64,000 nucleotides of DNA from a virus (IMGVR_UViG_3300021379_000425:21253-85252); one strand, 5' to 3'; positions 32,787 through 55,316 are shown, numbered from the stretch's first letter. The notes: generated by a model not told the origin, from the letters alone. Translations and numbers: made by a program.

Positions 32787-33620
32787 ATGGAAGTCACAGT
32801 GTACGAAGTCGGTCCTAGAGATGGTTTGCAGTACCTTGATGACATCGTGCCGACTAGAGAGAAAGTCAAACTAATCGAGATGCTGTACGACAGTGGGCTT
32901 ACCAAAATCGAGGAAGTCAGTTTCGCTCACCCCAAACTGCTACCGCAGATGGCTGACGCTGAGGCTGTTTTCACAGGGAGTGGGTCTGTGCTGGTGATGA
33001 ACCAGCGTGGGTTCGAGCGAGCCAATTCGTGCGGTGTCGTGCTAATCAATGTGGTTATCAGTCCTTGCGAAGTCTTCAATGTCAAGAATACCGGCAAAAC
33101 ACGGTCCGAGTTGATGACGATGTACAAAACAATGCTGGCGAATCACCCTAAGCAGTTCGTGAGGGTGTACATCAGCATGGCGTTTGGTAGTCCGTATAGT
33201 GGGCAGTTTAGTGCAAGAGAGATTCGTAACTGCGTGAGGGATGCAAGGATGCTTGGCGGTACAGTGGTCTTTGCTGATACCGTAGGGGCTGGTACGCCCG
33301 ATGAAGTAAAGATGATGGCTGACATAGCCAAAGATGAAGGTGTGCGCCCGGCTTTGCATCTGCATCATAAGGGCGAAGACGAGAAAGCGATTCGTTTGGT
33401 GCAGGCGGGGCTGATGGCTGGTATAACTGAGTTTGATAGCAGTATAGCCGGGCTTGGTGGGTGTCCGTTTGCTGAGGGTAGTGGTGCTAACCTGTCTACC
33501 TCGACACTGGTGCGTCATTTACATGCATGGGGCTTTGAGACAGGCGTTGACGAGAAAAAGTTAATTGCCGCTGAAAAATTCGTTAATTATTTTAGTCGTG
33601 ACTCCATCCCAGCCCCATGA
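32787..33620 (+). CDS. mvaB: Hydroxymethylglutaryl-CoA lyase (DRE-TIM metallolyase)
   Basis: EVGPRDGLQ, ADTVG, LHLH, FDSSIAGLGGCPFAEGSGANLST. Confidence 0.92.
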   Translation: MEVTVYEVGPRDGLQYLDDIVPTREKVKLIEMLYDSGLTKIEEVSFAHPKLLPQMADAEAVFTGSGSVLVMNQRGFERANSCGVVLINVVISPCEVFNVKNTGKTRSELMTMYKTMLANHPKQFVRVYISMAFGSPYSGQFSAREIRNCVRDARMLGGTVVFADTVGAGTPDEVKMMADIAKDEGVRPALHLHHKGEDEKAIRLVQAGLMAGITEFDSSIAGLGGCPFAEGSGANLSTSTLVRHLHAWGFETGVDEKKLIAAEKFVNYFSRDSIPAP

Positions 33621-34725: not shown

Positions 34726-36234
34726 TCAGTAGTAGAATTGGGGTGGAGTATATGTTGGTTTTGCTATATCATCAACATCTTCCTGCATTCCGGTGAGTAA
34801 TTTGACGACATGTTCCATGTCCGGGTGGATATTTCCTACCATAGTGCCGTCACTTGTCTCTTCAAATGTGTGATTGCGGTCTAGCACTGCAAGGTCACGG
34901 CGCATATCTTCACTGATTTCGTTAGGAAGTTGTAGTTCACCCTTGAGCATACGCCATGCTAAGTCCATTGGTTCACTTTTTAGTACTAATTTTTCATTTC
35001 CATATTCATCAGTTTCTATTACATAAGCCCCCGATGATAGCATCATCTGTACTTGTGGGTCATTGCGGTCAACTTTAGTTGGTTCTGCTTGGACATTCAG
35101 TGGATTGACAGTATCGTTTTTTGCCCTAATGTTAAGCAAGTTTTGTTGTAGCGGGTGCTGTGCTTGAAGATATGTAGACCTCGGTGCGCCAGTTTCGGGG
35201 TCAATATCCATTCTACCGGCAAAGTTTTGCATCATTCTATCAGCACCTTGCCTGTAAATGTTTCTTGGATTGAATATATTAGTTAAATTTGCAGAAGATG
35301 AAACATCATCTCTACTGATTCTACCGCCCTCAGCGACTCTTTCTACTGCTCTTTGGTTTATTTCTTGGGCAGATGGTCCTTTTGATTCCATAAATTTAGG
35401 TGCAGAAACGAATTCATACTCGGAATCTCTTATTGGATGCCATTCTTTTGTCTGTCGATGACCAGTATGATGTTCTGCGCCTACTGTTATTAAACCGATA
35501 CCGCTTCCTCCATCTTCTGCTCTTGATGTTTTATGTCCGATTACATAGTGTGGTCTATCAATGCCCTCTTTAGGTTCATCAGTGGAGAGTCCGGGTACTT
35601 TCAAAACAGGATATTCATTGTATGTTTCATTACCCAGCCTTGTTTCTATTTTAGTGTTAAGATACTCTTTCAGTTCGGGATTTTTCTCTAATAAAATATC
35701 TGCAACTGCAAGTGCTACATCTTCATGAGAATAACCCTCAAGACCTTTTGGCATTTCTTGATTCGGTTCTATTCTCTTATCAGCGTTTTTAGAATAATGA
35801 TTTTTATCTGCTAAACCGACAGTGTGTTTTTTCCCTCTTTTCATTTGTGCTTTAATATTGTCTATTTGACTGTCATTCCACATGGCATCCCATTTCCATG
35901 CTTTCATCAAATTCCAAAGGATGTCCATCGGCTCACCTGTGCGTATTTCGCTACCGGCTTTTGCCGCTTGAGCCATCTGTTGATTTTGATTCATCATGTT
36001 TTGCTGTTGCATTTGTTGGCGGTTTGCCTGTTGCTCACCTACATTTGAAGCGATTTGTCCAGCAGTTAGAGCCTGTCCAGCCTTCGTGTTGCCAGCCTGT
36101 ACTGCGACCTTACCTACTTTCTTGGCGGCCTGTTTAGCACCCTGTACTGCCGCCTGCCTTCCAGCCTGTGTAGCCACTGCACCAGCAACCGCCTTTGCAC
36201 CGGCGATAAGTGCAGGAGGTATGAACGCCGGCAT
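34726..36234 (-). CDS. Multi-module protein with two internal tags (GEPMDILWNLMKA, SEPMDLAWRMLKG)
   Basis: Ala/Gln-rich N-terminus; tags at 35899-35937 and 34939-34977. Confidence 0.7.
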   Translation of the reverse strand: MPAFIPPALIAGAKAVAGAVATQAGRQAAVQGAKQAAKKVGKVAVQAGNTKAGQALTAGQIASNVGEQQANRQQMQQQNMMNQNQQMAQAAKAGSEIRTGEPMDILWNLMKAWKWDAMWNDSQIDNIKAQMKRGKKHTVGLADKNHYSKNADKRIEPNQEMPKGLEGYSHEDVALAVADILLEKNPELKEYLNTKIETRLGNETYNEYPVLKVPGLSTDEPKEGIDRPHYVIGHKTSRAEDGGSGIGLITVGAEHHTGHRQTKEWHPIRDSEYEFVSAPKFMESKGPSAQEINQRAVERVAEGGRISRDDVSSSANLTNIFNPRNIYRQGADRMMQNFAGRMDIDPETGAPRSTYLQAQHPLQQNLLNIRAKNDTVNPLNVQAEPTKVDRNDPQVQMMLSSGAYVIETDEYGNEKLVLKSEPMDLAWRMLKGELQLPNEISEDMRRDLAVLDRNHTFEETSDGTMVGNIHPDMEHVVKLLTGMQEDVDDIAKPTYTPPQFYY

Positions 36235-36286
36235 GGAATTACCATAGAGCGATAATTCTTTAAATTATCCGTAATTAAAACATTTC

Positions 36287-38998
36287 ATGCGTAGGGGCGA
36301 AGACATCGAGAAAGCCCCTTCCAAACCTAAATCTTTCAAAGAATATTTAGAAACAATGCTGTCCGAAACTCCACCGTGGGCTTTGTACGAGGAAGGTGGA
36401 GAAACGGCACTTGATTATTCACCTTACGACCACCCTAAACTGAAAAATGTTGAAGATAAAAAGAAAGAAGATAAATTAAGAGAGTTGCTATTACATGATG
36501 AACCTAGATACCGACCTAGACTTCTTGACCCCGAAAATGCTGTGTTTGTACCTAAATTAGATGATAGATTAGATTCTGTTATAGATGACCCTTTGATAAA
36601 CTATGGTAAAAAATTCGCAAAGCCTTTTGAAAATGTAATAAGACAGGGTAAAAGATTAGTTGACCCTAAATTAATACGACCAAAATCGAGTGTACAAACT
36701 ACATTACCGCAACATTTTCCTAGACTAACAACCGAAAATCCTTACGATGAAGAGGGTAGAATAAAACCCGGTGCTATTGCGCCGATAACTGCTTTTAAAC
36801 AAATGGGTAGAGATGCTTTCAATAATCTTCTTTCTTACGGTTTGATACCCGGATTAACAGTTGATTCCTTAGATTGGGAAGATAGGTCTAATTTACGAGA
36901 TATGACTCCTGTTCCTGTAAAATCGGGGGCATCATTTGTAGCCCCAGTAGGTACTTTAGATGCCATAAGGGGTACAATGAATCAATCGGGAGGTCGAGGA
37001 AAACCGATTTATGTAGGCATTAGAGGATTTGCACAACCGGAAGATAAAGCATTCTTGAGAACAGACAGTAGAGAACCAATAGAGGCGGCGGCTTTGGGTC
37101 GTATTCCACCGGAAAGATTGGTTTTACCTTTCAATGTAGCACAATCGGGAAAGGAATTTGGAAGCCCACTTTCTTTTGAAGAATGGCGAAATGCTTCAAA
37201 AGGACCTACAACATTTGAAGATTATGTGGCACAAATGAAAGGTCCGAGGTATCTTCAACATTTACAAGATGCTGGATATACGGAAGAAATAGATGATTAC
37301 AGGCAACTTTGGAATAGTAGACAAGATATGCAAAGATTAGATTATGAAAAGTATTTACAAACAATGAAAAATTCTAGTATAAGAACAAATTTATTGAATC
37401 AAAGACTGGCTGAATTAGGAGAAGATTTTCCACCCTTAACGGCTGAAAATTACCCAATGGAAGGGGGGCAAAGAAATCCTTACCAAACATTATACTACGA
37501 ACATCTTTACGAAGATAAATTTCCAAAAACTGCCGCTGATACAAAAAATACAAGGGTAAAACAGGCTTTAGGTGCTGTGCCGAAAGAATGGAGTCAAAAC
37601 ACTAAATTTAATTTGATGAACCCTGCTTTAAGCGATGCTGAAAGGGAAGCAATAAGACAAGAATTTCAAGCGAATGCTGACCACGAAATACATATGAATA
37701 GTAGACATGATGGCACTGTTCACCCTGCTCAATTCAATAGAATTACAAGAGGTTTGATGAGCGCAATATATGGTCCACAAGCATCTAATATGATTGATTT
37801 CCGAGACAATGTAGGAGATTCTTATTCCGAAAGAGGTGAAAAAATAGGATTAGAAATGAATAACCCAGCGGCGGCATCGTTAGGATTACCTAATACATGG
37901 AACGCACCTCAATTATTCAATCCTAATTTCAATCCTAATCAATCAGTGATAAAAGCACCAAGAATCACTGCATACAGTCCTAGAGAAATAAGAGACATAG
38001 CACCCGACCTGCAAGGAATTAGGTATATACCGAAAGAATACTTAGAATCCGCTGGTAAGCCAATTAGAGTTCATAGTGGTGGGAAAAGAGGTGTAGGGCA
38101 ATCCTATGATTGGGAGCAGGATTTACAGCGATTAAAATACGATATACCGCAAAGTAGTTTTTATTCATGGATGATAAATAAACCAAAACCGCTTACAGGT
38201 TTGTTTAGTGAAGAATTTAGAATGATACCCGAATACAATATTGCAGGAAGAGAGTTAGAATTATCTCCGGTTGAAAGTGGAAATATTGTCGCTGGACAGT
38301 TTATGCACCCACCAGTAAAAGAAGCATTAAGAGAACCCGATTATACTGCACATCTTCACAGACCGATGGCTCTCACTGGAATATTGGAACAGCCTCAATT
38401 CATGAGAGAAGGAACTGAGGGGTCTAAAGGATTAGGTGAAGGATTCCACTATGGAGAACTAGAGCCGGATTCTGTCGTACAATTAGAACTACCACATAAT
38501 ATACAGCCTATGGAAATGGCTAGTGTTGCTAGGAAAAGAGAGTATGATAGACCTAGAAATCAAAGAGAGAAAGACGCAATGAATTGGTTAAGCCACATAC
38601 CAAGTATGGGTGTGCCTACATCTACTGAATGGTGGAAGCAACAGGGTGCAACGGAAATGACCGCACCTCAACTTGAACAGGCTGGATTATTCCAAGCCGG
38701 TGAACCAATGGACATCGCTATGCAGTTGCTAAAGCGGGAGATGAGTCCGGAAGCGAAACAACATAAACTCGAATATGACAAGAAGTATGAGTCCACGCCG
38801 GAGAGAGTCAAGTATCGTGAAGAGTTGAACCGTGAGCGCAGAAAGCGTGGTATCTACGGTAGCGGCGACCATATGGATGTCAGTCACACCGAGGGTGGTA
38901 AGTTAACTCTCGAAGGTGAACATGAGAATAGAGCGAGACATTTCAAAGAGCGTGGTACGCTTAGACCTAGCAAAATCGCTGTACGCAAAGACAATTGA
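36287..38998 (+). CDS. 903-aa multi-domain protein: possible ART/Tpt1-like domain, tag, C-terminal HNH-like domain
   Basis: LLSYGLIPG...ASFVAP...YVGIRG...EAAALGRIPPERL; AGEPMDIAMQLLKR (38696-38737); DHMDVSHTEGG...ENRARH. Confidence 0.6.
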   Translation: MRRGEDIEKAPSKPKSFKEYLETMLSETPPWALYEEGGETALDYSPYDHPKLKNVEDKKKEDKLRELLLHDEPRYRPRLLDPENAVFVPKLDDRLDSVIDDPLINYGKKFAKPFENVIRQGKRLVDPKLIRPKSSVQTTLPQHFPRLTTENPYDEEGRIKPGAIAPITAFKQMGRDAFNNLLSYGLIPGLTVDSLDWEDRSNLRDMTPVPVKSGASFVAPVGTLDAIRGTMNQSGGRGKPIYVGIRGFAQPEDKAFLRTDSREPIEAAALGRIPPERLVLPFNVAQSGKEFGSPLSFEEWRNASKGPTTFEDYVAQMKGPRYLQHLQDAGYTEEIDDYRQLWNSRQDMQRLDYEKYLQTMKNSSIRTNLLNQRLAELGEDFPPLTAENYPMEGGQRNPYQTLYYEHLYEDKFPKTAADTKNTRVKQALGAVPKEWSQNTKFNLMNPALSDAEREAIRQEFQANADHEIHMNSRHDGTVHPAQFNRITRGLMSAIYGPQASNMIDFRDNVGDSYSERGEKIGLEMNNPAAASLGLPNTWNAPQLFNPNFNPNQSVIKAPRITAYSPREIRDIAPDLQGIRYIPKEYLESAGKPIRVHSGGKRGVGQSYDWEQDLQRLKYDIPQSSFYSWMINKPKPLTGLFSEEFRMIPEYNIAGRELELSPVESGNIVAGQFMHPPVKEALREPDYTAHLHRPMALTGILEQPQFMREGTEGSKGLGEGFHYGELEPDSVVQLELPHNIQPMEMASVARKREYDRPRNQREKDAMNWLSHIPSMGVPTSTEWWKQQGATEMTAPQLEQAGLFQAGEPMDIAMQLLKREMSPEAKQHKLEYDKKYESTPERVKYREELNRERRKRGIYGSGDHMDVSHTEGGKLTLEGEHENRARHFKERGTLRPSKIAVRKDN

Positions 38999-39000
38999 TA

Positions 39001-39210
39001 CTGTTCACTATGTTCACTATGTTCACTTTGCTCATCAAAGTGTTCACTAAAAATGACCATTTCGATTGCCTAATGTTCAATATATCCCTTATTATAATAA
39101 TATAATATTAAGAGTAGTAGTACTATGAAAAAATGAACATTCTCATTCTGCTCATTTTGAATGAACAAAGTGGTGAACATTTTGAACAAAGCGAACATTT
39201 TGAACACAAT
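39001..39210. repeat. Origin-like element B: 9-bp-periodic TGTTCA iterons, AT-rich core, inverted TGAACA iterons
   Basis: TG(T/C)TCA at 39002, 39011, 39020, 39029, 39041 and 39074; core ATTATAATAATATAATATTAA; (T/C)GAACA at 39134, 39162, 39174, 39183, 39192 and 39201. Confidence 0.75.
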
Positions 39211-39239
39211 CTTTATGATGACCTCTCGGTTGACCATAA

Positions 39240-39815
39240 ATGAGGACAATGGATGAAATCAATCACTCGGAAGCAGAAATAAGACTACTGGGGCTGATAC
39301 TTACTCAGTCTGCATTGGTTGGATTAGCAATCGGAGTATTCGACTCGGACATATGGTTGAATAACGATGATGCGTTGGTAAACGGCTTTACATATGCAAT
39401 GGCCGCTTTCTTTATACAAGGAATAGCATATTATTTCTTTAAGATGTTCTTTGAACAGAACATGCAAGAAAGAGTCAAGATGCAGAATATTGAGAGACAA
39501 AGACAAAGCAGATTCAAGAATATGCAAAGCACATTTGATAATCGTAGAGCAGAAATGGAGTTAAGAATGCAAGAAGCACAACTAGAGGCTGAATTGCGCT
39601 GGATGGAGTCCAACCCCGGTAAAATGCCTCCTTCATGGGGTGTACAAGGTGGTTCACCTTCACTGATAAATCAGTATGAAAATAAATTAATTACAAATCC
39701 TCCTACACATCAAGCAGAAATAAAACAGCCAATTAATCTAGGAATAAAAGATGAAGAGGAAGAAGTACCTCTAAAGAAGGATGGAACACCGGATAAGAGA
39801 TACAAAACCGAGTGA
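39240..39815 (+). CDS. Membrane protein with 2 TM segments plus coiled coil
   Basis: LLGLILTQSALVGLAIGVF and GFTYAMAAFFIQGIAYYFF, followed by a charged helical region. Confidence 0.7.
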   Translation: MRTMDEINHSEAEIRLLGLILTQSALVGLAIGVFDSDIWLNNDDALVNGFTYAMAAFFIQGIAYYFFKMFFEQNMQERVKMQNIERQRQSRFKNMQSTFDNRRAEMELRMQEAQLEAELRWMESNPGKMPPSWGVQGGSPSLINQYENKLITNPPTHQAEIKQPINLGIKDEEEEVPLKKDGTPDKRYKTE

Positions 39816-39820
39816 TGTAA

Positions 39821-40081
39821 ATGGGTCGCATATTCAAAACCCCTTCCGATGACTCTACGGAGGCAACGCTTAGGGCTATGCATACCCAAAATACTCTTGA
39901 CACATATTACGAAAAAAGTTTAGGATGGATTAGAACCGTAATAATAGGGTTTATCGCAGTATTGATAACAAGTTTTTATGAATTACAAACAGGAAATTCC
40001 GTATGGGAGGGTACAGTAGAATGGTTTTACGGCAAGGTGGAAAATTTAGCGAATTTCTTATTCGGGTGGTTGTATGGTTGA
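39821..40081 (+). CDS. Small single-TM protein
   Basis: WIRTVIIGFIAVLITSFY. Confidence 0.65.
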   Translation: MGRIFKTPSDDSTEATLRAMHTQNTLDTYYEKSLGWIRTVIIGFIAVLITSFYELQTGNSVWEGTVEWFYGKVENLANFLFGWLYG

Positions 40082-40790
40082 ACCAGCAGGTACGGCACTT
40101 GTTGGTGCGATGGTTTGGGGAAAAGCGGTCTTCAATTCATACAGGCCACGCAAGGTCGGCATTTACGGCGCAGGACTAGTTGGTAAAACTACACTTGACC
40201 GCTTTATGACAACTCCGGGTGAAATGGAAGAGATTGATGAAGAAGATAGAACAACACACCTAAAATTACTGGGTAAATTTCTCTTACCTAAACCGACAAG
40301 AAAAAGAGTAGCATGGAAAGGAGAAAAGAGAGTAGTCTTTTCATCCGATATAGGTGGACAAGAGAGATTTTGGAATCTATGGATAGATGATATGGTATCA
40401 AGACAAGTAGAGGCTGTTGTCTATGTATTTGATGATAGAGCAGTAAAAGGCGGTGATGATGCATTACAACAGATTGCTGGGTTCAAATATCTAGTAGACG
40501 CAATAGTGTACAAGCAGTATCGTTATCGTAGTTTGAAAAGTAAAATTAAAGGAAAAAGATATTCTCCAAAACTGATTATGTTAGTTGCTAACAAAGCGGA
40601 TAGGTTCTTTGACGAGACTGCCGCAATGCTTTGGGGGCAAGACAGAATAGGAGAACACAAGATATTCGACCCGTTTAGAGATGATTTGATTAGGCTACAA
40701 AAGAACGGTATACCTACAAGAAAATCTTTCATGGCTACAAGAATAGGGTGGAATGTTGAAAATACAATGGTAAGTCTTTTGACAACATAG
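40074..40790 (+). CDS. Ras-superfamily (Arf/Rab-like) small GTPase
   Basis: G1 GAGLVGKTT, G3 DIGGQERF..LW, VVYVFD strand, G4 ANKAD; hydrophobic/amphipathic N-terminus. Confidence 0.88.
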   Translation: MVEPAGTALVGAMVWGKAVFNSYRPRKVGIYGAGLVGKTTLDRFMTTPGEMEEIDEEDRTTHLKLLGKFLLPKPTRKRVAWKGEKRVVFSSDIGGQERFWNLWIDDMVSRQVEAVVYVFDDRAVKGGDDALQQIAGFKYLVDAIVYKQYRYRSLKSKIKGKRYSPKLIMLVANKADRFFDETAAMLWGQDRIGEHKIFDPFRDDLIRLQKNGIPTRKSFMATRIGWNVENTMVSLLTT

Positions 40791-40799
40791 GTGAGATAT

Positions 40800-40967
40800 A
40801 TGGATAAAACGAAAATAGTATCAGTTGGTAAGGCAAGCAATAGCGTAAGAACTGTCATACCGATGTGGGTTGCTAAAATGTTAGAGATAGAAGTAGGCGA
40901 TAAGGTAACTTGGCAGATAGTAAAAACTGACAATGGCTATGCGGCAAGAATAGAGGTGGTAGAATGA
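40800..40967 (+). CDS. AbrB/SpoVT/MazE-type DNA-binding protein (55 aa)
   Basis: Manual translation MDKTKIVSVGKASNSVRTVIPMWVAKMLEIEVGDKVTWQIVKTDNGYAARIEVVE. Confidence 0.8.
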   Translation: MDKTKIVSVGKASNSVRTVIPMWVAKMLEIEVGDKVTWQIVKTDNGYAARIEVVE

Positions 40968-41887
40968 ATCAAGGATATAATTTAGCAGAAGTAAACACAG
41001 CGCATTTGTACGCTTTGAGTCAACAGGGTAACAATATGCTTTCTCATCAAGCCCTTAGTGACCAAGCATTAGCGCAAACAGCAATGCAAGAAATAGGTAC
41101 TGAACAGAATTTACAAGTTCCTAAAGTAAATTTCTACCCAAGTAGACATCCCGACCCTCATAAGGCTAGAAGAAAAGACATCAAACAGGCTTACAAACTT
41201 CTTATGCCTTCAAAACGAAACTTTTTCAATCCGGCAAGAATGTTCTTAGGTCGTAAACATAGATACAACAAGCAAACAAATGTTTGTGTTGTTGATGGAT
41301 GCGATTGTGCTACTTTAATCAAATATGATAACTTGTATGATAAAATTAAAGATGAAGAAACTGGAAAATCTCTTTGGGAATTATACTGGCAAAATCCAGT
41401 AACAGGTGAAGATGAAGCGTTTATTGCGAAAGAAAAAGTCACAAATGGTAGAAAAATGAGAGGTACATATTGCCCCGAACATTTACATCTCTATCATTTG
41501 CTATGTAAGTGGGAAGCAGAAGAAGAGAAAATTCGTGAAGCAAACCCAAGAAGATTGCGTGACCATGTGAGAAAAGGAGTTAGTGTTGTTACTGTACCAG
41601 TATCGACTATCAAAAGAAAAGACCCCACTCCTAAATTCTTAGAAAAGTACGAAGGATTCTTTGCTGAACTAGAAAAAGACTCTAAGAGGACAAAAGGTAT
41701 CAACATTCTGCATTATCAAAACCCTCAAAATGGAATGAATGATGTCACTATGATTGTTTTTGACCTTAGAATATTCCAGCAAGAACTAGCAATGATGAAC
41801 CAACCGACCCCTGCATTTCAACAAATGATGAATGGGCAAGTTAATATCCAAGCCCCTGCTGAGGAAGTACCACTGATGGGTGAGTAA
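40964..41887 (+). CDS. Hypothetical protein with Cys/His metal motif
   Basis: CVVDGCDC...YCPEH. Confidence 0.7.
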   Translation: MNQGYNLAEVNTAHLYALSQQGNNMLSHQALSDQALAQTAMQEIGTEQNLQVPKVNFYPSRHPDPHKARRKDIKQAYKLLMPSKRNFFNPARMFLGRKHRYNKQTNVCVVDGCDCATLIKYDNLYDKIKDEETGKSLWELYWQNPVTGEDEAFIAKEKVTNGRKMRGTYCPEHLHLYHLLCKWEAEEEKIREANPRRLRDHVRKGVSVVTVPVSTIKRKDPTPKFLEKYEGFFAELEKDSKRTKGINILHYQNPQNGMNDVTMIVFDLRIFQQELAMMNQPTPAFQQMMNGQVNIQAPAEEVPLMGE

Positions 41888-42476
41888 CATGCTCGGACTC
41901 GGAAATAATAATCAACAACCAATGAATAACGGTATGCTTAATTTAGGTGTACAAACACAAACACAACCTGTACCGGGTCAATTCCCCGGTATGGTGCAAC
42001 AACAACAGTTTGGACAACAAATGTATCAACAACCAGCACCTCCTAGTGAAATGGAAATGCAGATTCTTTTGTTGAGAGGTATAGTTCCTGTTGACAGGTT
42101 TATCGCAAGTAATCAAATGGCTACACTAGTACAACTAATCAACAATGTGGTTAGTCTAAGTGTTCTTGAGGTTATGAAGAACGCAGTATTCATTGAAGAC
42201 GAAGAGGCTGGCGGATTAAAACTAGATATTACTAAACTACCAAGTCATCTTCAAACAATGAGTGCTGAGAACATCAAGGCTGAGTTTGCTACAATGCAAG
42301 GCACTGCACAAGGTAACATTCAACAGGCTGAGATGACACAGCAACAAATAGCGCAAATGGCTCAACAATCTGCAATGAGTGGTGCAATGCAACGCTTGAT
42401 GCAAGATGAAAGTCTAATGGATAAGGCTGGTGAAACCGCTGGCAAGTTCATGGGCAACTTCTTAGGCACGAGATGA
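41880..42476 (+). CDS. Gln/Met-rich hypothetical protein
   Basis: Low-complexity Q-rich ends. Confidence 0.7.
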   Translation: MSNMLGLGNNNQQPMNNGMLNLGVQTQTQPVPGQFPGMVQQQQFGQQMYQQPAPPSEMEMQILLLRGIVPVDRFIASNQMATLVQLINNVVSLSVLEVMKNAVFIEDEEAGGLKLDITKLPSHLQTMSAENIKAEFATMQGTAQGNIQQAEMTQQQIAQMAQQSAMSGAMQRLMQDESLMDKAGETAGKFMGNFLGTR

Positions 42477-42480
42477 TAAT

Positions 42481-42723
42481 ATGGATGAAAGGAGATACAT
42501 GCCAAGTGGAGTGGCGGCTTCAACGCTAGATGTTTTGAACCCTACAAGAAGCGTTACTGTTGATATGATAATGGTACAGTTCTTGTCTGCCATACTTACA
42601 ATTCTTGTAATCATATTATTCAAAGGTCAAACTTTAGGTTCTTCTACTGCATCTTACTTGATGCTCGCTATGATAGCATCAATTATTATGCTCTCAACAG
42701 TATATGCTAGAATAACCAAATAG
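42481..42723 (+). CDS. Small 2-TM membrane protein (holin-like size)
   Basis: Two hydrophobic helices. Confidence 0.65.
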   Translation: MDERRYMPSGVAASTLDVLNPTRSVTVDMIMVQFLSAILTILVIILFKGQTLGSSTASYLMLAMIASIIMLSTVYARITK

Positions 42724-42963
42724 TCACCATTTGTTTAACGGGCAATTAGAGTTGAACAGATTTGTTTTAGCATTAATAAAACATCCACATTCAAGACAAC
42801 GGTTGTTTCTTCTACTTGGGCATGTTTGACAAATTCTGCGTCTTTCATCTTTGAGTATAGCGGGTGCAAATCGACCCTTAGCCGTGTCACTGATAGCCAT
42901 TTTCAAACTATCAATTGATTCTTTTGTGAGAGGCACTTTTGCTATTCTCTTTCCCTTCCACAT
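42724..42963 (-). CDS. Small Cys-rich protein (DUF6171-like)
   Basis: RRRICQTCP...RCLECGCFINAKT...CPLNKW. Confidence 0.65.
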   Translation of the reverse strand: MWKGKRIAKVPLTKESIDSLKMAISDTAKGRFAPAILKDERRRICQTCPSRRNNRCLECGCFINAKTNLFNSNCPLNKW

Positions 42964-43022
42964 GATTTGCCCAGCACCTATTTAACCATAATCGTTTTGA
43001 ATAACCATTGTTTAACCATGCT

Positions 43023-43700
43023 ATGGGCGGAGAGCGTGTTGTAAAACGCTCATGTGCATTTTGCACACATGAAGACCGTGACAAACTTGAGGAACAACTG
43101 CTTCAAGGTTACATTTCTCCAAAGCAACTGGACAAAGATATGGGTTGGAGAACAAACACCACTGACCGTCATTTTCGCAATCACATGGGCGAGTATCACA
43201 TGGCTTCAAACACAAGTTGTGCGCTTTGTACTACACCACTGAGAGCAGATTACGAGAGAATCTATTTTGAGGATGGAAGTAATATAGAAAGGATTGCCAG
43301 TGAATTAGAAATAAGTGAGGATAATGTATATCATCACATGAAGCACCACTTCCAACCGTTAGTGCAAAAGTCTGCGGCAGTGGAAGTAGCATTAGTCGCT
43401 GGGCAAGAAATAAACCTATTGAGGTCAAACGCTGAAAAATTAAACTACAAACTGAGCGAACTGCTTGACGAAGGCACTGTTCATGAAGATGGATTCGTAA
43501 GAGATGCTGTTGCCTTGCACAAGGAAGTTAGAGAAACTGTCAAAGACTTGCTACGCTTCCAAGACCAATGGGGTGCGAAGGCTGAGGGTCAACAAGTCAA
43601 TCAAACCTTCAACATTCTACAAGTTGAACTGGGTAAAGAAAGCCCCGAAACTTGGTCTAGGATAAAGAATCAATTAATGGAAAATATGGGGGTTGAATAA
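43023..43700 (+). CDS. Tandem Zn-HTH protein, terminase small subunit candidate
   Basis: Two CxxC...HxxxH repeats plus a coiled coil; late operon upstream of TerL. Confidence 0.5.
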   Translation: MGGERVVKRSCAFCTHEDRDKLEEQLLQGYISPKQLDKDMGWRTNTTDRHFRNHMGEYHMASNTSCALCTTPLRADYERIYFEDGSNIERIASELEISEDNVYHHMKHHFQPLVQKSAAVEVALVAGQEINLLRSNAEKLNYKLSELLDEGTVHEDGFVRDAVALHKEVRETVKDLLRFQDQWGAKAEGQQVNQTFNILQVELGKESPETWSRIKNQLMENMGVE

Positions 43701-45757
43701 TGCCAATGATGGGAAGAGGTTCGGACACTCGTATGTACTCGCCCCGTAGCGAGTCCGACAAGATGTATTCATCGGCTAATGAAGACGAGAGTAAGTATAA
43801 TCCTGCGTCACCCGAATACAATGAGGAAAAGCGTGAGGAAAAGAAACGCAAAGAAGAAGAGCGCAAGGAAAGCCGTTCCAAAATAAAACATATCAAAATT
43901 CGTGCATCACAAGGTCTTGGTGAAGAAACCAAAGAAGAAGGGCTTGATGATGGCAACAAGCGTGATGATGAGCGTGAAATGGCTCTTCAAGGTGGTCCTG
44001 CCGGAAGTAGAGGTACACTACTTGACCTCGCTACTGGGGCGAAGAGTGGAACTGGAAGTGCAATGAGTCCGGGTCTACCTATTGCTATGAGCGAACCAAT
44101 GACTGACGCTTGGAGTGACTTGTTAAAGTCTAAGAAAATATCTCCGGGTATTGGCGCAGATGAGTCCGATGCTTTAGAAGAGAGAATGAGAAGGGCTGGC
44201 GAAAAAGTTGGAAGAGATTTCTCTCATTTAGGACAAAGGAGAGTAGAAACAGGTAGAAGTAAGCGTGGAGAAGTAAGTAGAAATTTTAAAACATCAACTG
44301 GTGGCACTGGTAAACTATACACAGGTCCAAGAAATAATCGTGCGTATAGAAGAGAACTGGCTGAAAAGCAAAAAGAGTTAGAGGAAGAAAGAAGAAAGAC
44401 AGAAGATTTCATAAATCGAACCAAAATACACCCCGGAGAGGAAAATTTTAGACCGGATAAAATGATTAACACTGATTCTATATCTAATTTACACGAATCG
44501 GGTTTAATTGAACCGCAAGATGTAGCAAGAGATACTGATAGAGGTGGCTATGCAAGAATAGAAATGGATGGCGACAAACCTGTTTCTACTGGTGTTGCAC
44601 CATCGGAATTTAACGACCTTAGAGGTGCGATGTCTATTGAAGAGGCTTTTGATAGAGCCGAAAGAGGTATACCAGTTATTGAAGTAAATCCCGAACACCC
44701 TGATATGGCAGATGTAGGGGATATAGAATCCGATATGACTGGTACATACATACCCGAATCGCCTAAGATGCAATTTGGTTTTCGTGAAAATCCTTACTTG
44801 AGAAATACTAAAACTGGTAATTTTGCTAGAGTAGATGCAACGCCTTCATTCCGTGGTATTCCGTTCAATGAAAATACATATTTCACAGCGAGTGAGCCAA
44901 TGGATAATGCATGGAGTAGTTTGTTAAAGAGAGAAACACCAAAGACAATTGCATCTCGAAGAAGAAGAGAAGCAAGACAACAATTCCGACCAAGCACAGG
45001 ACAATTCAAGACACCTCCGGGCGGTATGACACCGGAGGGTTCCACAATGCGAAGATTCAAAGCCCGTATGCGTGGTATCAAGGGTGGAAAGAAAACAGGT
45101 TTGATGAAACCTCACCTTTCTGTCGAGATGTCACACAGGGGTATTCAAACGAAGCAACCGTTGAGTAAAGACCCACAAAAGTACACACAATACAAAGGAC
45201 AATCCGAGGCAAGAAAGATTCTCGGTGGTGCAAGAACTGTATATTCTCCACATGCAAGATACGGTGCTAGGTCGAACATAGCAGGACCAACTGGTGCTGG
45301 AAGATTAAGCGGTGTCTTACCTTCTCAAAGAGGACAAATGACAAGACCTTCTCTAAGACAAATGGGTATAAGAAGACCAAGAATGCCTAGAGTAATGAGG
45401 CCACCAATGCCTCCACAACCAATGATGCCACAAATGCAATCATCTGTACCAAGTATGCCAGCACCTATCATGGCGAGCGAAGAAAGAGCGCACAGTGAAC
45501 TTCTAAAGGCAAACTTCGCAAGAAGAATGGAGTTGCTTGAATTGATGAGAAGGCTCATTCGTGCAAAAGAAAAGGAAGCAAAAATCAAGAAGAACATCAA
45601 AGGAACTGATGAAGCACTAGTACCCGGACACCCTGTTGGAGTAAGGGCAACTGATGATGAAGACCCCGATGGACCTACTGAAAACACAGAAACAGATGCA
45701 AAGTTGTTCGGTCTTGACCCTGCTCATATTGTATCACGCAGGGGGCATATGGGATGA
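43700..45757 (+). CDS. Low-complexity putative virion protein with repeated tags
   Basis: MSEPMTDAWSDLLKS (44087-44131), ASEPMDNAWSSLLKR (44888-44932) and HSELLKA; basic Arg-rich segments. Confidence 0.7.
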   Translation: MPMMGRGSDTRMYSPRSESDKMYSSANEDESKYNPASPEYNEEKREEKKRKEEERKESRSKIKHIKIRASQGLGEETKEEGLDDGNKRDDEREMALQGGPAGSRGTLLDLATGAKSGTGSAMSPGLPIAMSEPMTDAWSDLLKSKKISPGIGADESDALEERMRRAGEKVGRDFSHLGQRRVETGRSKRGEVSRNFKTSTGGTGKLYTGPRNNRAYRRELAEKQKELEEERRKTEDFINRTKIHPGEENFRPDKMINTDSISNLHESGLIEPQDVARDTDRGGYARIEMDGDKPVSTGVAPSEFNDLRGAMSIEEAFDRAERGIPVIEVNPEHPDMADVGDIESDMTGTYIPESPKMQFGFRENPYLRNTKTGNFARVDATPSFRGIPFNENTYFTASEPMDNAWSSLLKRETPKTIASRRRREARQQFRPSTGQFKTPPGGMTPEGSTMRRFKARMRGIKGGKKTGLMKPHLSVEMSHRGIQTKQPLSKDPQKYTQYKGQSEARKILGGARTVYSPHARYGARSNIAGPTGAGRLSGVLPSQRGQMTRPSLRQMGIRRPRMPRVMRPPMPPQPMMPQMQSSVPSMPAPIMASEERAHSELLKANFARRMELLELMRRLIRAKEKEAKIKKNIKGTDEALVPGHPVGVRATDDEDPDGPTENTETDAKLFGLDPAHIVSRRGHMG

Positions 45758-47781
45758 AGGTAAGAGTCATCAAGGCGGAAGGTGTACTCGCTTACCTACA
45801 AGATGGTCCTGTTTATCTTAGAAATCCACCAGTTAATGCACTAAGAGCAGAAGGACAGCCGGATGTACCACCATTTGCTCACGATGGACAAGGTAATGTC
45901 TTAGACGGTGAATACAAAGTAGGACCTCATGGAGAGCAAGTGTTTGATGCCGGGTTCGCTCATCACAGACACGGTATAGATTCGGTGGCTCACCATCTTG
46001 GAGAATTTTTGAAAAATAGAGGTTCAAGGGTCAATCCAGTTGATGTAATTAATCATGCTATTGAAGAGTTCAATGATAATCACACAGATGGCGATACACA
46101 TGCATTAGATAATTTTGATTCTCCACAGTGGAGAAAAACGAATGCGAATGTTTTGCCGGGCGGTGATTCTGCATATAATAAAGAAACTAACGCATTTACC
46201 CACACAAGACCTACAAGAACAAACGCTGGTAAAAAGATTACTAACTATACAAATAAAAATTATCAAACTAATCAATTCGGTAGATTCGTAGAATCATATG
46301 CTATTCCTTTCCATGCTGAATTATTGAGAGCGTTAGTAGATATGGGATTCTCAAGAAACGAACTAATGCAAAGTAATCTAAACTTCTTGAAATATCCTTA
46401 TCTTCCAGTAGAAAAAACTGTTCACTCCCTTGACCCCGATAACGAGATTGGTAAAGTTATAAGATTACACAAACCTATTGGTGACTCCACAGTAACAGAT
46501 GAGGCTAGAAGACAATCTCCTACTGATTACTTTGGTGATACTACACCAGTATTCACATACAATACTCTTCATCATTTACCCGACATATTCTTCCATCCCG
46601 ATTTGAAAGAGTCACTAGGTAAAAAGGGTAAAGTACACTCTTGGGACCACAAAGGAGGACTGTACGCACAGGCTGAATCAATTATTAATCAAGCATTAGA
46701 AAGAGGTGTAGAACACATACCTAATGTTGAAGTTACAATCAATGAAGGCACAATGGGCAATCCACAAATGATTACTAGACCACTTAGAGAAATACTAACT
46801 ACACCGGATTTGAAGCGAAGTCTTATCCAAGACATGTCGCATGTACCTGCTATGATGTATCTTTTTGGTAGGAGTAATCAAGGTAATTTCAAGAAACTAG
46901 AAAACTACATGACGCAGAAATTTGGTGGTGAAGAAGACGGTTTATCCTACGAACACCATCTAGGTTATTTCAAAGCCGGTGAAAAGGGTGGAAAGGGTAT
47001 GCACTCTTCCGCAAGAAGAATCATGGCATTGGCTAGAAAGTCCGGTGTCGGAGAGGCTGAGGACAGGAGTAAATTTGGTGAACACACAATTACGCCCGAT
47101 GAACTTCGTGCGGCTGATATGTATTCTAATGAAAATCTAATGGGTCAAGTTGATAGATTCCGAAATGTATTGGAAGCACTAGCAGACCACCAATCTAATG
47201 CAAGAGGATTAGAACCTAGAATGGTATTAGGAGATATTCCTACATCGCCTCTAATTGCTCCGAATGTTGGTAATTTTCCGGCAGTTAACCCCGAAACAGG
47301 GCAATTAGAAACAGGACTTGAACCACATATGGAAGAGTTCCTACATCACCCGCATGAATATGCGCCTACATCAGCATACGACCCTAGTATGTCTGCTCCA
47401 CAACAGAATGTCCTAGCAGGTCAGTTGCCTCCAATTGTCGGTTCTCCAACCTCCGGCGAGTCACTTCCTCAACCTCCTGTTAGGACACCTCAACCTCCTA
47501 TGGGTGCTATGCCAACATCGTACCCACACACAGCAAGACAACAGTTCCAGCAACTAAGACCACAGTTTGCTGGTCTTGACCCAAGACAGTTTAGACAAGT
47601 ATTGGATATTGCTGGTTCAAGAAGAGCAGGTGCGCCTATAACTGATGACCCACTCTCTCCTGTTGAGATGAGAGCGCAACAAGCATTGGCTGACCCAGCG
47701 CAAACATTACTTCCATTCTTTAACAAGAGCAATCCAATCGGCGGTGCTTTTGACCTACTGAAAAGGAGGGGCATATTATGA
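45754..47781 (+). CDS. Hypothetical putative virion protein
   Basis: Starts MKVRVIKA and ends NPIGGAFDLLKRRGIL. Confidence 0.7.
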   Translation: MKVRVIKAEGVLAYLQDGPVYLRNPPVNALRAEGQPDVPPFAHDGQGNVLDGEYKVGPHGEQVFDAGFAHHRHGIDSVAHHLGEFLKNRGSRVNPVDVINHAIEEFNDNHTDGDTHALDNFDSPQWRKTNANVLPGGDSAYNKETNAFTHTRPTRTNAGKKITNYTNKNYQTNQFGRFVESYAIPFHAELLRALVDMGFSRNELMQSNLNFLKYPYLPVEKTVHSLDPDNEIGKVIRLHKPIGDSTVTDEARRQSPTDYFGDTTPVFTYNTLHHLPDIFFHPDLKESLGKKGKVHSWDHKGGLYAQAESIINQALERGVEHIPNVEVTINEGTMGNPQMITRPLREILTTPDLKRSLIQDMSHVPAMMYLFGRSNQGNFKKLENYMTQKFGGEEDGLSYEHHLGYFKAGEKGGKGMHSSARRIMALARKSGVGEAEDRSKFGEHTITPDELRAADMYSNENLMGQVDRFRNVLEALADHQSNARGLEPRMVLGDIPTSPLIAPNVGNFPAVNPETGQLETGLEPHMEEFLHHPHEYAPTSAYDPSMSAPQQNVLAGQLPPIVGSPTSGESLPQPPVRTPQPPMGAMPTSYPHTARQQFQQLRPQFAGLDPRQFRQVLDIAGSRRAGAPITDDPLSPVEMRAQQALADPAQTLLPFFNKSNPIGGAFDLLKRRGIL

Positions 47782-48627: not shown

Positions 48628-50115
48628 ATGACAGACATGAATGAGTTCATCATGGACATGGATAGAAAAATGTCCTCGAAGTCATTCAAGTATTTTTTTA
48701 ATGATATTTTAAAATTCGATTATTCTTATCATCACCAGTGCTGGGATGAGGGGCTGGCTGAGAACAGATACTATTGTGTTAAGGCGAGTCGTGACCACGG
48801 CAAGTCTGTATTCTTCATGTCTTATGCTCTTTGGATAGCGGCTTTTCAGCCGGGTACTCACATCATGATTTTCTCTCACTCTCTTGAGCAGACGCTTGAA
48901 CACATGAGATTCATCCGTAACAACATAGAGGGTACACCTTGTTTGAGGTATTTGATACCGGAAGGTAGACCGTGGAGAAAGACATATTTCGAGTTCAGCA
49001 ACGGAAGCCGTATTATGGCAAAGTCCGTTGGTGGTGGTACTCGTGGATTCCACCCGAATGTTGTTCTGTGTGACGATATTTTGTGGGGTACTACTGGTAC
49101 TGAACTACAAAGAGCCGCAGACTGGTTCTACGGTGTATTGCTTCCTGTACTGCACCACACAGGTAGACTGATGATGGTCGGTACACCTTTCAGTTACAAT
49201 GACCTGTACGCTGAATTAGAGCAGACTGAGACATTCACAGTAGAAACTTACCCCGCAATTAACGCAAACGGTGAAGCATTATGGCCGGAGAGATGGAATC
49301 TTGAGGCACTAGATGAAAGGCGTTTGACTATGCCGGCTATACAATTCTCTCGTGAGTATCTATGCGAGCCTATTCACGATGTAGCAAGTATGTTCCCTAA
49401 TGAACTACTAGAGAAAGCGAGAAACACTGACTTGGTTTTACTTGACAAAGCCGAGGTAGAATACAATGCTGATGGTGAAGTAGCCGGTGTATTCGGTCAA
49501 CACTTCATCGGATGGGATACTGCGATAGCCTCCGACAAAAACGCAGACTTTACGGCCATGACTGTGATGAGGATACCTCCGGGTGAAGGTATTAAACAGA
49601 TAGTGGGAATCGTACACGAGAAGGGGATGGGAAGCCTTGCTCAAAAGAAACAGATACTAATGCTGAACAATCGCTTCCAGCCGGATTTGATTGAACTTGA
49701 AGGTAACAACTTCCAGCGTATGTTTGAAGCAGAATTGGTAGAGATGAGAAACGACATACCAATTAAGACCTTCATGACAACTCGTACTCGTAAAGAGAGC
49801 CTGTTTATGTCACTGCTGATGGCATTTGAACAAGGACAAATACAAACTCCATATGGTGACAAGCGAAGCAAAGAGTTCACACACAAGTTAGAAACTGAAC
49901 TGAACAGATTCGGTATGCAGAAAAACGGCAGACTAGAATCCGTAGGTACGCACGATGACTTGGCGATGAGTCTTGCTTTGGCTAATTGGGCTACTAAAGA
50001 ATTCAAGGGTAGCGTAGTTCTGCTAGATGATGTGCTACCCGGCTTTGATGACTGGATGCGTGGAAAACCACACAGGAGCGAAGCAAGCCTAGCAGATGGT
50101 TGGATGATACCATGA
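48628..50115 (+). CDS. terL: Terminase large subunit
   Basis: ASRDHGKS Walker A, VLCDD Walker B, VGTP, IGWDTA and HDDLAMSLALA nuclease motifs. Confidence 0.93.
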   Translation: MTDMNEFIMDMDRKMSSKSFKYFFNDILKFDYSYHHQCWDEGLAENRYYCVKASRDHGKSVFFMSYALWIAAFQPGTHIMIFSHSLEQTLEHMRFIRNNIEGTPCLRYLIPEGRPWRKTYFEFSNGSRIMAKSVGGGTRGFHPNVVLCDDILWGTTGTELQRAADWFYGVLLPVLHHTGRLMMVGTPFSYNDLYAELEQTETFTVETYPAINANGEALWPERWNLEALDERRLTMPAIQFSREYLCEPIHDVASMFPNELLEKARNTDLVLLDKAEVEYNADGEVAGVFGQHFIGWDTAIASDKNADFTAMTVMRIPPGEGIKQIVGIVHEKGMGSLAQKKQILMLNNRFQPDLIELEGNNFQRMFEAELVEMRNDIPIKTFMTTRTRKESLFMSLLMAFEQGQIQTPYGDKRSKEFTHKLETELNRFGMQKNGRLESVGTHDDLAMSLALANWATKEFKGSVVLLDDVLPGFDDWMRGKPHRSEASLADGWMIP

Positions 50116-50951: not shown

Positions 50952-50976
50952 ATCATAGGTCATTTGAGTGGTCATT

Positions 50977-54750: not shown

Positions 54751-55316
54751 AACCTAGATTTGAAGAAGCAACTTATTTGAAAAAGGCTCGTGAACTAGCA
54801 CTAAGAATAGACGAATTGGAAAAAGCCAAGAAGAACTGCCCCGAATGTGAGGGTAAAGGCGATGATTGTAAGTGTGATGAAAAATGCCCTTCCTGTGGTG
54901 ATAAAATGGACAAGGGCGGCTGTATGAAGATGGGATGCGGAGGCAAAATGGAAAAAGCCGAGCCGGGATACAAGGCTGAGAAAATAACTAATGTTAATCC
55001 TGCTTTCATGGCTGAATCCGGTGGACAAACCAAGACTGGTTATTTTACCACAAATGGAAAGACTATCGAAACAGAAGATGCTAAGAAAACAAAGAAGGGC
55101 AAGGAAAGTGCTAACATGGAGGCTCTTGCATCTGCACAAAACCCACATGAGGGTGGCGGTGTAGAAAGAGAGATTGCGGCTGGTGGAAAAGAGTTGAAGA
55201 AGTTTAGACCACCTACTATTTGTGAATGTGGTGCTACGCCTAGTACCGGATGTATGAGAGCCGAAACTCTTGGCACAAACATCAAGGCTTGCCCCCAGTT
55301 TAGACCGCTTCAATGA
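54747..55316 (+). CDS. Cys/Lys-rich head-region protein
   Basis: CPECEG...CPSCG; ELEKA and KMEKA. Confidence 0.6.
   Translation: MKPRFEEATYLKKARELALRIDELEKAKKNCPECEGKGDDCKCDEKCPSCGDKMDKGGCMKMGCGGKMEKAEPGYKAEKITNVNPAFMAESGGQTKTGYFTTNGKTIETEDAKKTKKGKESANMEALASAQNPHEGGGVEREIAAGGKELKKFRPPTICECGATPSTGCMRAETLGTNIKACPQFRPLQ

Follow-up and report, generated by a model that had tools for sequence, protein, structure and literature searches.

The locus described here raises the question of what an Arf-like small GTPase does among small membrane proteins in the late region of a tailed virus of marine archaea. In the present study, we analysed 64,000 nucleotides (nt) of viral DNA (the window, IMGVR_UViG_3300021379_000425:21253-85252), which form positions 21253-85252 of a linear IMG/VR virus record of 85,252 bp with an estimated completeness of 79%. 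Positions 39240-42723 of the window are filled by seven open reading frames (ORFs), all on the + strand, as the ORF map and the translations showed and as an initial annotation of the DNA had placed them. In order, they encode a membrane protein of 191 amino acids (aa), an 86-aa single-pass membrane protein, a 238-aa small GTPase, a 58-aa AbrB/MazE-like protein, a 307-aa protein with conserved Cys and His residues (the Cys/His protein), a 198-aa Gln-rich protein and an 80-aa two-pass membrane protein. We show that this cassette is a core feature of the magrovirus-type tailed viruses of Marine Group II (Poseidoniales), and its GTPase is very probably a real GTP-binding switch. The explanation that we consider best overall, a core cassette exerting a GTP-switched late action on the membrane, is put forward tentatively, as the leading candidate and short of a probable conclusion.

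Two sets of loci carry the main finding. For the first, 80 loci were fetched through the GTPase (63-100% identity) and their genes were located by tblastn; the gene order was the same in 79-80 of the 80. All 80 loci contain, in constant order, the GTPase, the Cys/His and Gln-rich proteins, the 80-aa protein, the downstream 230-aa protein (HTH230) and a 685-aa protein. The two upstream membrane proteins (191 and 86 aa) were found in 79; the single exception (L048) starts 96 nt before the GTPase gene and holds no upstream DNA. The second set of 80 loci was anchored on the large terminase, so that its selection was independent of the GTPase while some contigs were shared with the first set, and the 32 loci with at least 9 kb of upstream DNA were counted. 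The cassette, including the GTPase and the 86-aa protein, was present in 32 of these 32 loci, and the median distance from the GTPase to the terminase downstream was 8,777 nt. These counts agree with the earlier placing of the GTPase among membrane-protein genes ahead of the packaging genes, and they show the block to be conserved. The AbrB-like gene occurred in 57/80 GTPase-anchored and 27/32 terminase-anchored loci, and a DUF6171 gene at the end of the block in 49/80.

Synteny in related viruses, which the initial annotation had named as a check, holds down to 36% GTPase identity. Two loci have GTPases in the range of 36-38% identity. One of them (L170) carries all six genes other than AbrB, and HTH230, in order, so the cassette is complete at 36% identity; the hidden Markov model (HMM) matches there were E 4.8e-7 for the 191-aa protein, 1.1e-4 for the 86-aa protein, 1.4e-19 for the Gln-rich protein, 2.6e-10 for the 80-aa protein and 2.4e-52 for HTH230. 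The other (L169) has the same set in order minus the 191-aa protein, which was not detected there (HTH230 E 1e-43), and the 191-aa protein was found by HMM in all four loci of the P0126 clade. The AbrB-like gene was not found in L169, L170 or L171 and was not detected by HMM in the distant clades. Furthermore, the GTPase was found by HMM in 84/84 distant loci. In the P0150 clade, at 32% identity, it was the sole cassette protein that the HMMs found, and the ORF map of that clade shows the same architecture, in which a protein of two transmembrane (TM) segments with a charged tail and a small TM protein come before the GTPase and a Cys/His and a Gln-rich protein come after it. Homology of the latter two to their counterparts in the window is supported by hhalign (Cys/His 79.9%, E 1.4e-5; Gln-rich 78.3%, E 1.8e-5). 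The Cys/His and Gln-rich proteins thus always accompany the GTPase, and homologous small membrane proteins do so down to 36% identity. Median ratios of nonsynonymous to synonymous substitution (dN/dS) were 0.067 for the GTPase, 0.092 for the Cys/His protein, 0.125 for the 191-aa, 0.148 for the 86-aa and 0.185 for the 80-aa protein (0.125-0.185 for the membrane and Gln-rich proteins together) and 0.48 for AbrB; these values are rough, since 3-8 of the 10 pairs tried for each gene were valid and dS was saturated (1.4-2.4), and pairs of undefined dS were dropped.

The nature of the GTPase was read from its translation and from a family alignment (A1) of 20 members with 25-84% identity. The initial annotation had described a 238-aa small GTPase with G1, G3 and G4 motifs, and all three are present (GAGLVGKTT at residues 32-40, DIGGQERF at 92-99 and NKAD at 173-176) in a protein whose small-GTPase fold is modelled with confidence by AlphaFold2 on A1 (predicted local distance difference test, pLDDT, 88.2; predicted TM-score, pTM, 0.85). 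The G1 motif has the form GxxxxGK[ST] (GAGLVGKT, residues 32-39), and the family carries the DxxG and [NT]KxD motifs of the Ras superfamily (TRAFAC). Residues G32, G37, K38, L41, D92, G95, D120, R122, N173 and K174 are invariant in all 20 members, and D176 is kept in at least 90%. At the SA position of G5, the window protein reads M-A-T and more distant members of A1 read S-A or D-A. Judged from these motifs, the residues for phosphate, magnesium and guanine binding appear intact in the family. In the model, a helix (4-23) precedes strand 1 (26-32), a beta hairpin (75-81 / 84-90) lies between the switches, and extra helices occupy 127-146, 154-161 and 175-188. Foldseek returned at least 500 small-GTPase matches in the PDB at E <= 0.001, the best at 6.8e-9, with generic Rab, Ras and Arf proteins at about 1e-8. 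Searches with the single sequence were weak: Pfam Roc at E 0.0064, below the cut-off, NCBIfam small_GTP at E 0.023 and, by phmmer against the PDB, only Arl8A and Arl10C at E of about 1.

Within the superfamily, the initial annotation had called the protein Arf/Rab-like, and the comparison places it nearer to Arf than to Rab or Ras. The best match of the A1 profile in the PDB was 8oun_A (GerdArfR1-GDP, E 8.4e-8); the ungapped alignment begins in the N-terminal helix, passes the P-loop and reaches DxGGQ......W. Arl8 proteins came next (5.9e-5 to 4.2e-4). According to the available part of a preprint (bioRxiv 10.1101/2024.02.28.582541), 8OUN and 8OUM are structures of GerdArfR1, the former with GDP. 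RecA concatemers in the same list matched the P-loop only and were set aside. In the structure comparison by VIA-align, ranks 1-15 were Arf family members and the nearest were GTP-bound Arf proteins. In the protein atlas, the nearest named clusters behind the viral ones partly carry Pfam Arf, which we take as a lead. The viral protein shares with the Arf family (GerdArfR1 8OUN/8OUM, HodArfR1 8OUK, Arl8, Arf1, Arf6, Arl1 and Arl3) the small-GTPase fold, DxGG at G3, NKxD, an N-terminal helix directly before strand 1 and, in the model, a beta2-beta3 hairpin between the switches. With Arl8 and GerdArfR1 it also shares a switch II Trp at equal spacing in the ungapped alignments.

The canonical marks of the Arf family did not come out with the same clarity. 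As given in the accessible part of one study (PMC11914678), Arf-specific features are Leu-Asp at positions 2-3 of G1, Gly at position 3 of G3, an N-terminal amphipathic helix and the interswitch hairpin. The Gly (DxGG) is present in 18/20 members, the exceptions being P0160 and P0195, but Leu-Asp is present in 0/20, and the window protein has Ala-Gly in its place. The DxGGQ sequence had been called typical of Arf/Rab GTPases; it is not a fixed feature of the viral family, as the Gln is kept in 12 of the 20 diverse members. The Arf-like hydrophobic N-terminus stood in part: the helix at 4-23 is predicted and hydrophobic (Eisenberg H 0.48) and is not of TM grade (maximum of 1.09 in 19-residue Kyte-Doolittle windows), but it is Gly/Ala-rich and its hydrophobic moment is low (0.19). 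In addition, the viral protein differs from Arf proteins by about 60 extra residues in three inserts (switch I at ~47-74, ~127-161 and ~175-188). It is encoded by a prokaryotic tailed virus beside orphan partners, and no known Arf GTPase-activating protein (GAP) or guanine nucleotide exchange factor (GEF) fold was found nearby. The window GTPase had no Pfam Arf (PF00025) match at E <= 0.1, and 4/20 relatives matched below the threshold (best E 0.0048). Because Leu-Asp is lacking, the Gln is variable, the helix is weak and the Pfam matches are scattered, we call the GTPase Arf-like and, on its sequence, assign it to a probably separate viral family outside the Arf family proper.

The same scatter bears on a different reading of the protein as a soluble switch of the signalling or translation type, with its N-terminus packed on the protein itself and the neighbouring membrane genes unrelated to it. 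The Pfam tallies over the 20 members, all sub-threshold, are indeed spread (Roc 11, MMR_HSR1 6, GTP_EFTU 4, Arf 4, RagA 3), and the low hydrophobic moment of the helix agrees with such a cytosolic role. However, the GTPase gene overlaps the membrane gene before it by 8 nt and the gene order is fixed down to 36% identity, both of which argue for a shared function, and the structural neighbours are the membrane-acting Arf proteins. We therefore regard a purely cytosolic regulator as very unlikely.

Another explanation is that a host gene of the MglA or Ras type was captured recently and has no specialised viral role, an outcome that the initial annotation had itself raised for an isolated MglA-type gene. 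Some of the best 120 of the 481 proteins found at E <= 0.001 by a word-indexed search bear the automatic JGI name 'GTPase SAR1 family protein', which suggests a cellular family. These best 120 are 74-100% identical and were drawn from marine data of Tara, JGI, ENA and Logan, where their contigs reach 150 kb in length. In contrast, an exhaustive search of 1.84 billion representatives returned 76 proteins at E <= 0.001. Of these, 11 are of the full-length type and are family members and the rest look like fragments, except P0133 (E 1.4e-34), a protein of 2,180 aa with about 23 near-identical FN3-like repeats in which weak repeat matches were summed and which we rejected as a false positive. Among IMG/VR contigs, 156 carry a close relative, 4 a P0126-type and 140 a P0150-type GTPase. 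In 185,579 species genomes there were four matching loci, all with cassette genes, so that they look like viral contigs. Three are on contigs of metagenome-assembled genomes labelled Maricaulis, Parvibaculum and Flavobacteriales, which were presumably mis-binned. The fourth (L170) is a 106,262-bp contig in the single-cell genome 'uncultured Candidatus Poseidoniales archaeon isolate AG-422-I20'. The profile matched in 2 of 151 host-order genomes, namely the viral contig itself and a trivial 29-residue P-loop stretch (E 0.007), so recent capture from the host is not supported, and no other relative was present in those 151 genomes. A tblastn search of 50,697 phage records with the GTPase gave no match, and in the same records the terminase found relatives at 28% identity or less only. 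The family is thus found almost only on viral contigs, within which it has diverged to 25-36% identity with its neighbours kept, and recent capture is hardly credible as an explanation.

The virus itself was placed by its gene content. The portal, an S78 prohead protease and an SU10/HK97-type capsid protein are encoded downstream on the strand of the cassette, and in the other arm and the rest of the record the Pfam scan also found an SNF2/HARP helicase, an RFC-like AAA ATPase and DUF932. Further genes encode a Cpn60/TCP-1 chaperonin (E 4.7e-127), an ERCC4 nuclease, a PD-(D/E)XK nuclease, a PolB exonuclease domain, a Dam-type methylase and a pyrimidine-dimer glycosylase. In the available part of the report of Philosof et al (PMC5434244), all magroviruses have an archaeal replication set, the SNF2 helicase belongs to group A and thermosomes to groups A and D. 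For group A (Apasviridae), the accessible part of another report (PMC11706807) lists thermosomes, a jelly-roll protein of ~6 kb, HTH-LuxR, PD-(D/E)XK and LAGLIDADG nucleases and a pyruvate carboxyltransferase. As the gene set agrees with these published group A lists, we filed the genome as probably magrovirus group A-like (Apasviridae-like).

The positions of the cassette genes and of their surroundings are collected in Table 1. The junctions between the seven ORFs are, in order, +5, -8, 0, -4, -8 and +4 nt; these leave no room for internal signals, and from this spacing we infer that the seven genes are co-transcribed. As had been stated before, the block lies ahead of the packaging genes, with the large terminase downstream of it.

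Table 1. Features of the GTPase cassette and its surroundings in the window
Feature	Position	Strand	Basis or remark
191-aa membrane protein	39240..39815	+	ORF map, hydropathy; R/Q/E/M-rich region after the TM part, acidic tail
86-aa single-pass membrane protein	39821..40081	+	Stop overlaps GTPase start by 8 nt
238-aa small GTPase, called Arf-like, with hydrophobic N-terminal helix	40074..40790	+	Motifs, profile, AlphaFold2 model
58-aa AbrB/MazE-like (SpoVT-AbrB fold) protein, accessory	40791..40967	+	GTG start; sub-threshold Pfam match
307-aa Cys/His orphan protein, probably zinc-binding	40964..41887	+	Most constant GTPase neighbour
198-aa Gln-rich orphan protein	41880..42476	+	GTG start
80-aa two-pass membrane protein, last gene of the + strand block	42481..42723	+	
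79-aa DUF6171 Cys-rich protein, variable insert ending the block	42724..42963	-	Pfam DUF6171, phrog_13558
230-aa protein (HTH230), weak helix-turn-helix (HTH) match and CxxC motifs	43008..43700	+	Constant downstream neighbour
Large terminase	48628-50115	+	Pfam, PHROGs
502-aa large late protein flanking the cassette	34726-36234		
903-aa large late protein flanking the cassette	36287-38998		
685-aa large late protein flanking the cassette	43700-45757		

The membrane proteins were examined by hydropathy (Kyte-Doolittle, 19-residue windows, threshold 1.6). The 191-aa protein had been described as having two TM segments, of which one stood, a strong segment at 16-34 (2.13); the second, an aromatic stretch, remains below the threshold. 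The 86-aa protein has its one segment at 34-52 and the 80-aa protein has two, at 29-47 and 60-78, both as predicted. The 191-aa protein belongs to no Pfam, PHROG or NCBIfam family and the Gln-rich protein likewise to none in Pfam, PHROGs or NCBIfam; no PHROGs family was found for any of the seven block proteins, and the NCBIfam scan of the block gave sub-threshold matches only. The 58-aa protein lies just below the Pfam cut-off for MazE_antitoxin (E 1.1e-4, 22.5 bits against 24.7) and matches NCBIfam doc_partner at E 0.007, so the AbrB regulator of the initial annotation is retained as a SpoVT-AbrB fold just under the cut-off, but as an accessory gene and not as a constant member of the block. 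The Cys/His protein was rightly named: in 81 close-clade sequences, C108, C170, H173, H175 and H178 are invariant and C113 is kept in 98%. Across three clades C108, G112, G162, T168, Y169, C170, L80, P82 and P212 are kept. The conserved Cys and His residues suggest a zinc site in this 307-aa protein. Its model has a pLDDT of 75.5 and a pTM of 0.58, and the protein atlas held no usable match for it.

How these parts could work together can be proposed as follows. The cassette genes would be made together with the structural and packaging genes, as one tightly packed + strand block. The GTPase would cycle between its GDP and GTP states, and in one of them its N-terminal helix would sit on the cytoplasmic membrane of the host alongside the small membrane proteins. 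The regulator and/or effector of the GTPase would be the Cys/His and Gln-rich proteins, and the switch would set when or where the membrane proteins act. The three integral membrane proteins and the hydrophobic N-terminal helix of the GTPase speak for such a membrane link. The most likely output would be a late change of the host membrane that serves virion release. The block lies in a late context, on the same strand as the terminase, portal, protease and capsid genes and adjoining them. Release is favoured because no holin or endolysin is recognisable and because the exit route of tailed viruses from archaeal cells is described as unresolved in the available part of a review (PMC10791045). 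We consider it probable, by a modest degree, that the cassette acts at the host membrane; a role specifically in egress or in lysis timing is doubtful.

A comparison with the holin-based lysis cassettes of tailed phages is instructive here. These likewise have small membrane proteins near packaging or structural genes, and the position of the cassette beside the terminase region recalls lambda. The block differs in having no holin or lysin family by Pfam and PHROGs, and, as had been remarked before, no endolysin is recognisable, none being found by Pfam among 50 window proteins. We know of no described lysis cassette that includes a Ras-superfamily GTPase, and our literature search found none.

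Several observations weigh against the proposed late membrane function. Each step of the mechanism is inferred, and the function is a predicted one. No membrane protein of the block matches a holin family or any PHROG (Pfam, PHROGs), and the 80-aa protein has no charged C-terminal tail. The N-terminal helix of the GTPase is weakly amphipathic, unlike textbook Arf helices. The catalytic Gln after DxGG is replaced in 8/20 members, by E (3), H (2), D (1), A (1) and F (1), and therefore rapid intrinsic hydrolysis, or hydrolysis aided by a GAP in the classical way, may not hold throughout the family. The model of the Cys/His protein resembles no solved fold, including no known GAP, GEF or effector fold. 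Weakly in favour of a partnership, a complex of the GTPase with the Cys/His protein, predicted with GTP and Mg, reached an ipSAE of 0.36 (three runs, 0.35-0.37) against 0.01 for the best of 3 controls, with a partner pLDDT of at least 62 and with runs that agree in at least 39% of contacts. In the calibration of this test, 58/80 solved complexes and 2/110 mismatched pairs reached the mark; passes at 0.60 or under comprise 7 of the 80 solved complexes and both passing mismatches and are more often wrong than right unless the pair is likely beforehand, so the prediction is a weak hint of such a complex. In the P0150 clade, the upstream membrane proteins have no significant match to those of the window by HMMs or hhalign (probability <1%), and only position and topology agree. 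The co-occurrence in a single-cell genome (L170) ties the virus to the cell and is no proof of infection.

The position of the block in the P0150 clade adds to its late context and also fits an assembly role: there the protease, capsid and small head genes immediately precede it, and further large late genes follow. The GTPase and its partners could accordingly be a morphogenesis factor that helps to build the virion, at a membrane assembly site or by chaperoning the head or neck, and not to release it. In the window, too, the block lies between large late proteins and the terminase, and it is as strictly core (32/32) as structural genes are. On the other side, three integral membrane proteins are unexpected for the assembly of a tailed virion without a membrane, none of the proteins matches a PHROG head, tail or packaging family, and to our knowledge no assembly step of tailed viruses uses a Ras-type GTPase. 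Taken together, we judge morphogenesis to be quite unlikely.

The nearest known system in function is found in archaea themselves. According to the available parts of two papers (PMC10927574; review PMC10791045), the small GTPase ArvA of Haloferax carries an amphipathic helix at its N-terminus and is required for vesicles to form; the first of these also describes its operon partners, namely ArvB (DUF2073) and ArvC, a Zn-ribbon protein that has been proposed to act as a GAP. The viral block resembles ArvA/ArvB/ArvC (OapABC) in that a helix-bearing small GTPase shares an operon with a zinc-binding protein (a probable one in the virus) and membrane deformation is proposed, and an IGIYGP..GKTTL context and a switch I insert motif are common to both. 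This likeness raises the reading of a takeover of the host membrane other than lysis, in which the cassette might form vesicles, or compartments for replication or assembly, change how the cell divides, or keep out superinfecting viruses. GTPases of the ArvA type, encoded directly upstream of OapB in 5 of 6 fetched loci (L174-L179), can be aligned to the viral family, and the alignment takes in the switch I insert (hhalign 95.3%, E 2e-8). Furthermore, OapB (PF09846) was found in none of 61 host-order genomes searched and in 95/201 of the host phylum, both being samples of incomplete genomes, and the same search found it in Haloferax volcanii and Methanosarcina acetivorans as controls; the vesiculation system of the ArvA type may thus be missing from Poseidoniales.

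However, the match spans 62 columns only, from the P-loop to G3, a region common to any two GTPases. The ArvA type has DTPG at G3 in place of the viral DIGGQ, and its nearest PDB relatives are of the EngA/Era types. There is no Pfam match to OapB or OapC (DUF2072) in 9 block proteins at E <= 0.1, the viral block has three integral membrane proteins in addition, and a PADLOC scan of the block found no defence match beyond a marginal 4TM effector (E 0.0069) on the 191-aa protein. The short match, the DTPG and the EngA/Era neighbours place ArvA outside the viral family, and it may be regarded as a functional analogue, perhaps a distant cousin. A takeover of the ArvA kind is unlikely, although less so than a role in morphogenesis. 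We place at the same level the strongest form of the release reading, in which the cassette would be a self-contained viral membrane machine driven by a GTPase: the Arf-like switch would recruit or gate the membrane proteins, the zinc protein would regulate it, and the membrane of a wall-less marine archaeon would be opened or budded. If true, this unlikely form would give archaeal tailed viruses a new way out of the cell and would be the first system of a membrane-acting small GTPase known from a prokaryotic virus, acting in a host lineage seemingly without an ArvB-type vesiculation system.

The preferred reading, a GTP-switched late membrane action, is of interest beyond this virus. Marine Group II are abundant ocean archaea, and the block is a candidate for viral action on the host membrane or exit through it. 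A strictly conserved late-region block that joins an Arf-like switch to three membrane proteins and to two proteins of no known fold offers a concrete, clonable candidate for the exit step, and its parts are small and soluble enough for standard tests. The block also extends Arf-like, helix-bearing GTPases to prokaryotic viruses and bears on the spread of GTP-switched membrane binding outside eukaryotes and Asgard archaea. A full-text search of the literature, covering main texts, found no description of the cassette and nothing on GTPases of magroviruses or Marine Group II or on Arf-like GTPases of phages or archaeal viruses. The word 'GTPase' is absent from the main texts of PMC5434244, PMC10160649, PMC11706807 and PMC8651126; supplementary tables of the first three, such as Table S13, may list a GTPase annotation.

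Signals and transcripts around the block were also considered. A scan of 38800-43800 with a bacterial-type model found 20 promoter-like sites (shuffled sequence, 14.3 +/- 4.0) and 4 terminator-like sites (shuffled sequence, 3.1 +/- 1.6), which is uninformative; the model is also unfit for an archaeal virus. Contigs were compared with 36000-46000. Of the 6 runs listed, 2 are RNA libraries, in which 0.26 and 0.05 of the sampled words occur. Short contigs from run X1 cover parts of the block, one of them (40764-41099) spanning the GTPase/AbrB/Cys/His junctions; we did not use them as evidence of transcription because the libraries are labelled 'viral metagenome' and DNA was possibly present, and we likewise drew nothing from the parts left uncovered. 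Directly upstream of the cassette, a non-coding element at 39001-39207 has TGTTCA(C) repeats on its left, an AT-rich core at ~39085-39115 and TGAACA repeats on its right, and could be an operator/promoter region or an origin.

Several further features were observed around the cassette. The large late proteins of 903, 502 and 685 aa that flank it have no Pfam family, and their translations show repeated short motifs of the 'EPMD.AW..LK' type, which could be protease sites or targeting tags. HTH230 matches Pfam GerE at E 0.0089, below the cut-off. The DUF6171 gene just exceeds its Pfam cut-off (E 3.8e-6, 27.6 bits against 27) and matches phrog_13558 at E 5.9e-13. Where the window has this gene on the - strand, L170 has a 94-aa Cys-rich ORF on the + strand (6095-6379), and this place in the block appears to attract small inserts of the zinc-ribbon type. 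Elsewhere in the window, an HMGL-like enzyme of the pyruvate carboxyltransferase / HMG-CoA lyase type (32787-33620, Pfam E 3e-22) fits the auxiliary gene given for Apasviridae in the available part of PMC11706807. Between terminase and portal, a 431-aa ORF (50968-52263) has a weak LAGLIDADG_3 match (E 0.005) and may be a homing endonuclease in the packaging region. Finally, the structural module includes a 1,898-aa protein (55313-61009) whose sole match is a sub-threshold stretch of ATP-dependent DNA ligase (E 7.5e-5) and which may be the ~6-kb jelly-roll protein of group A magroviruses.

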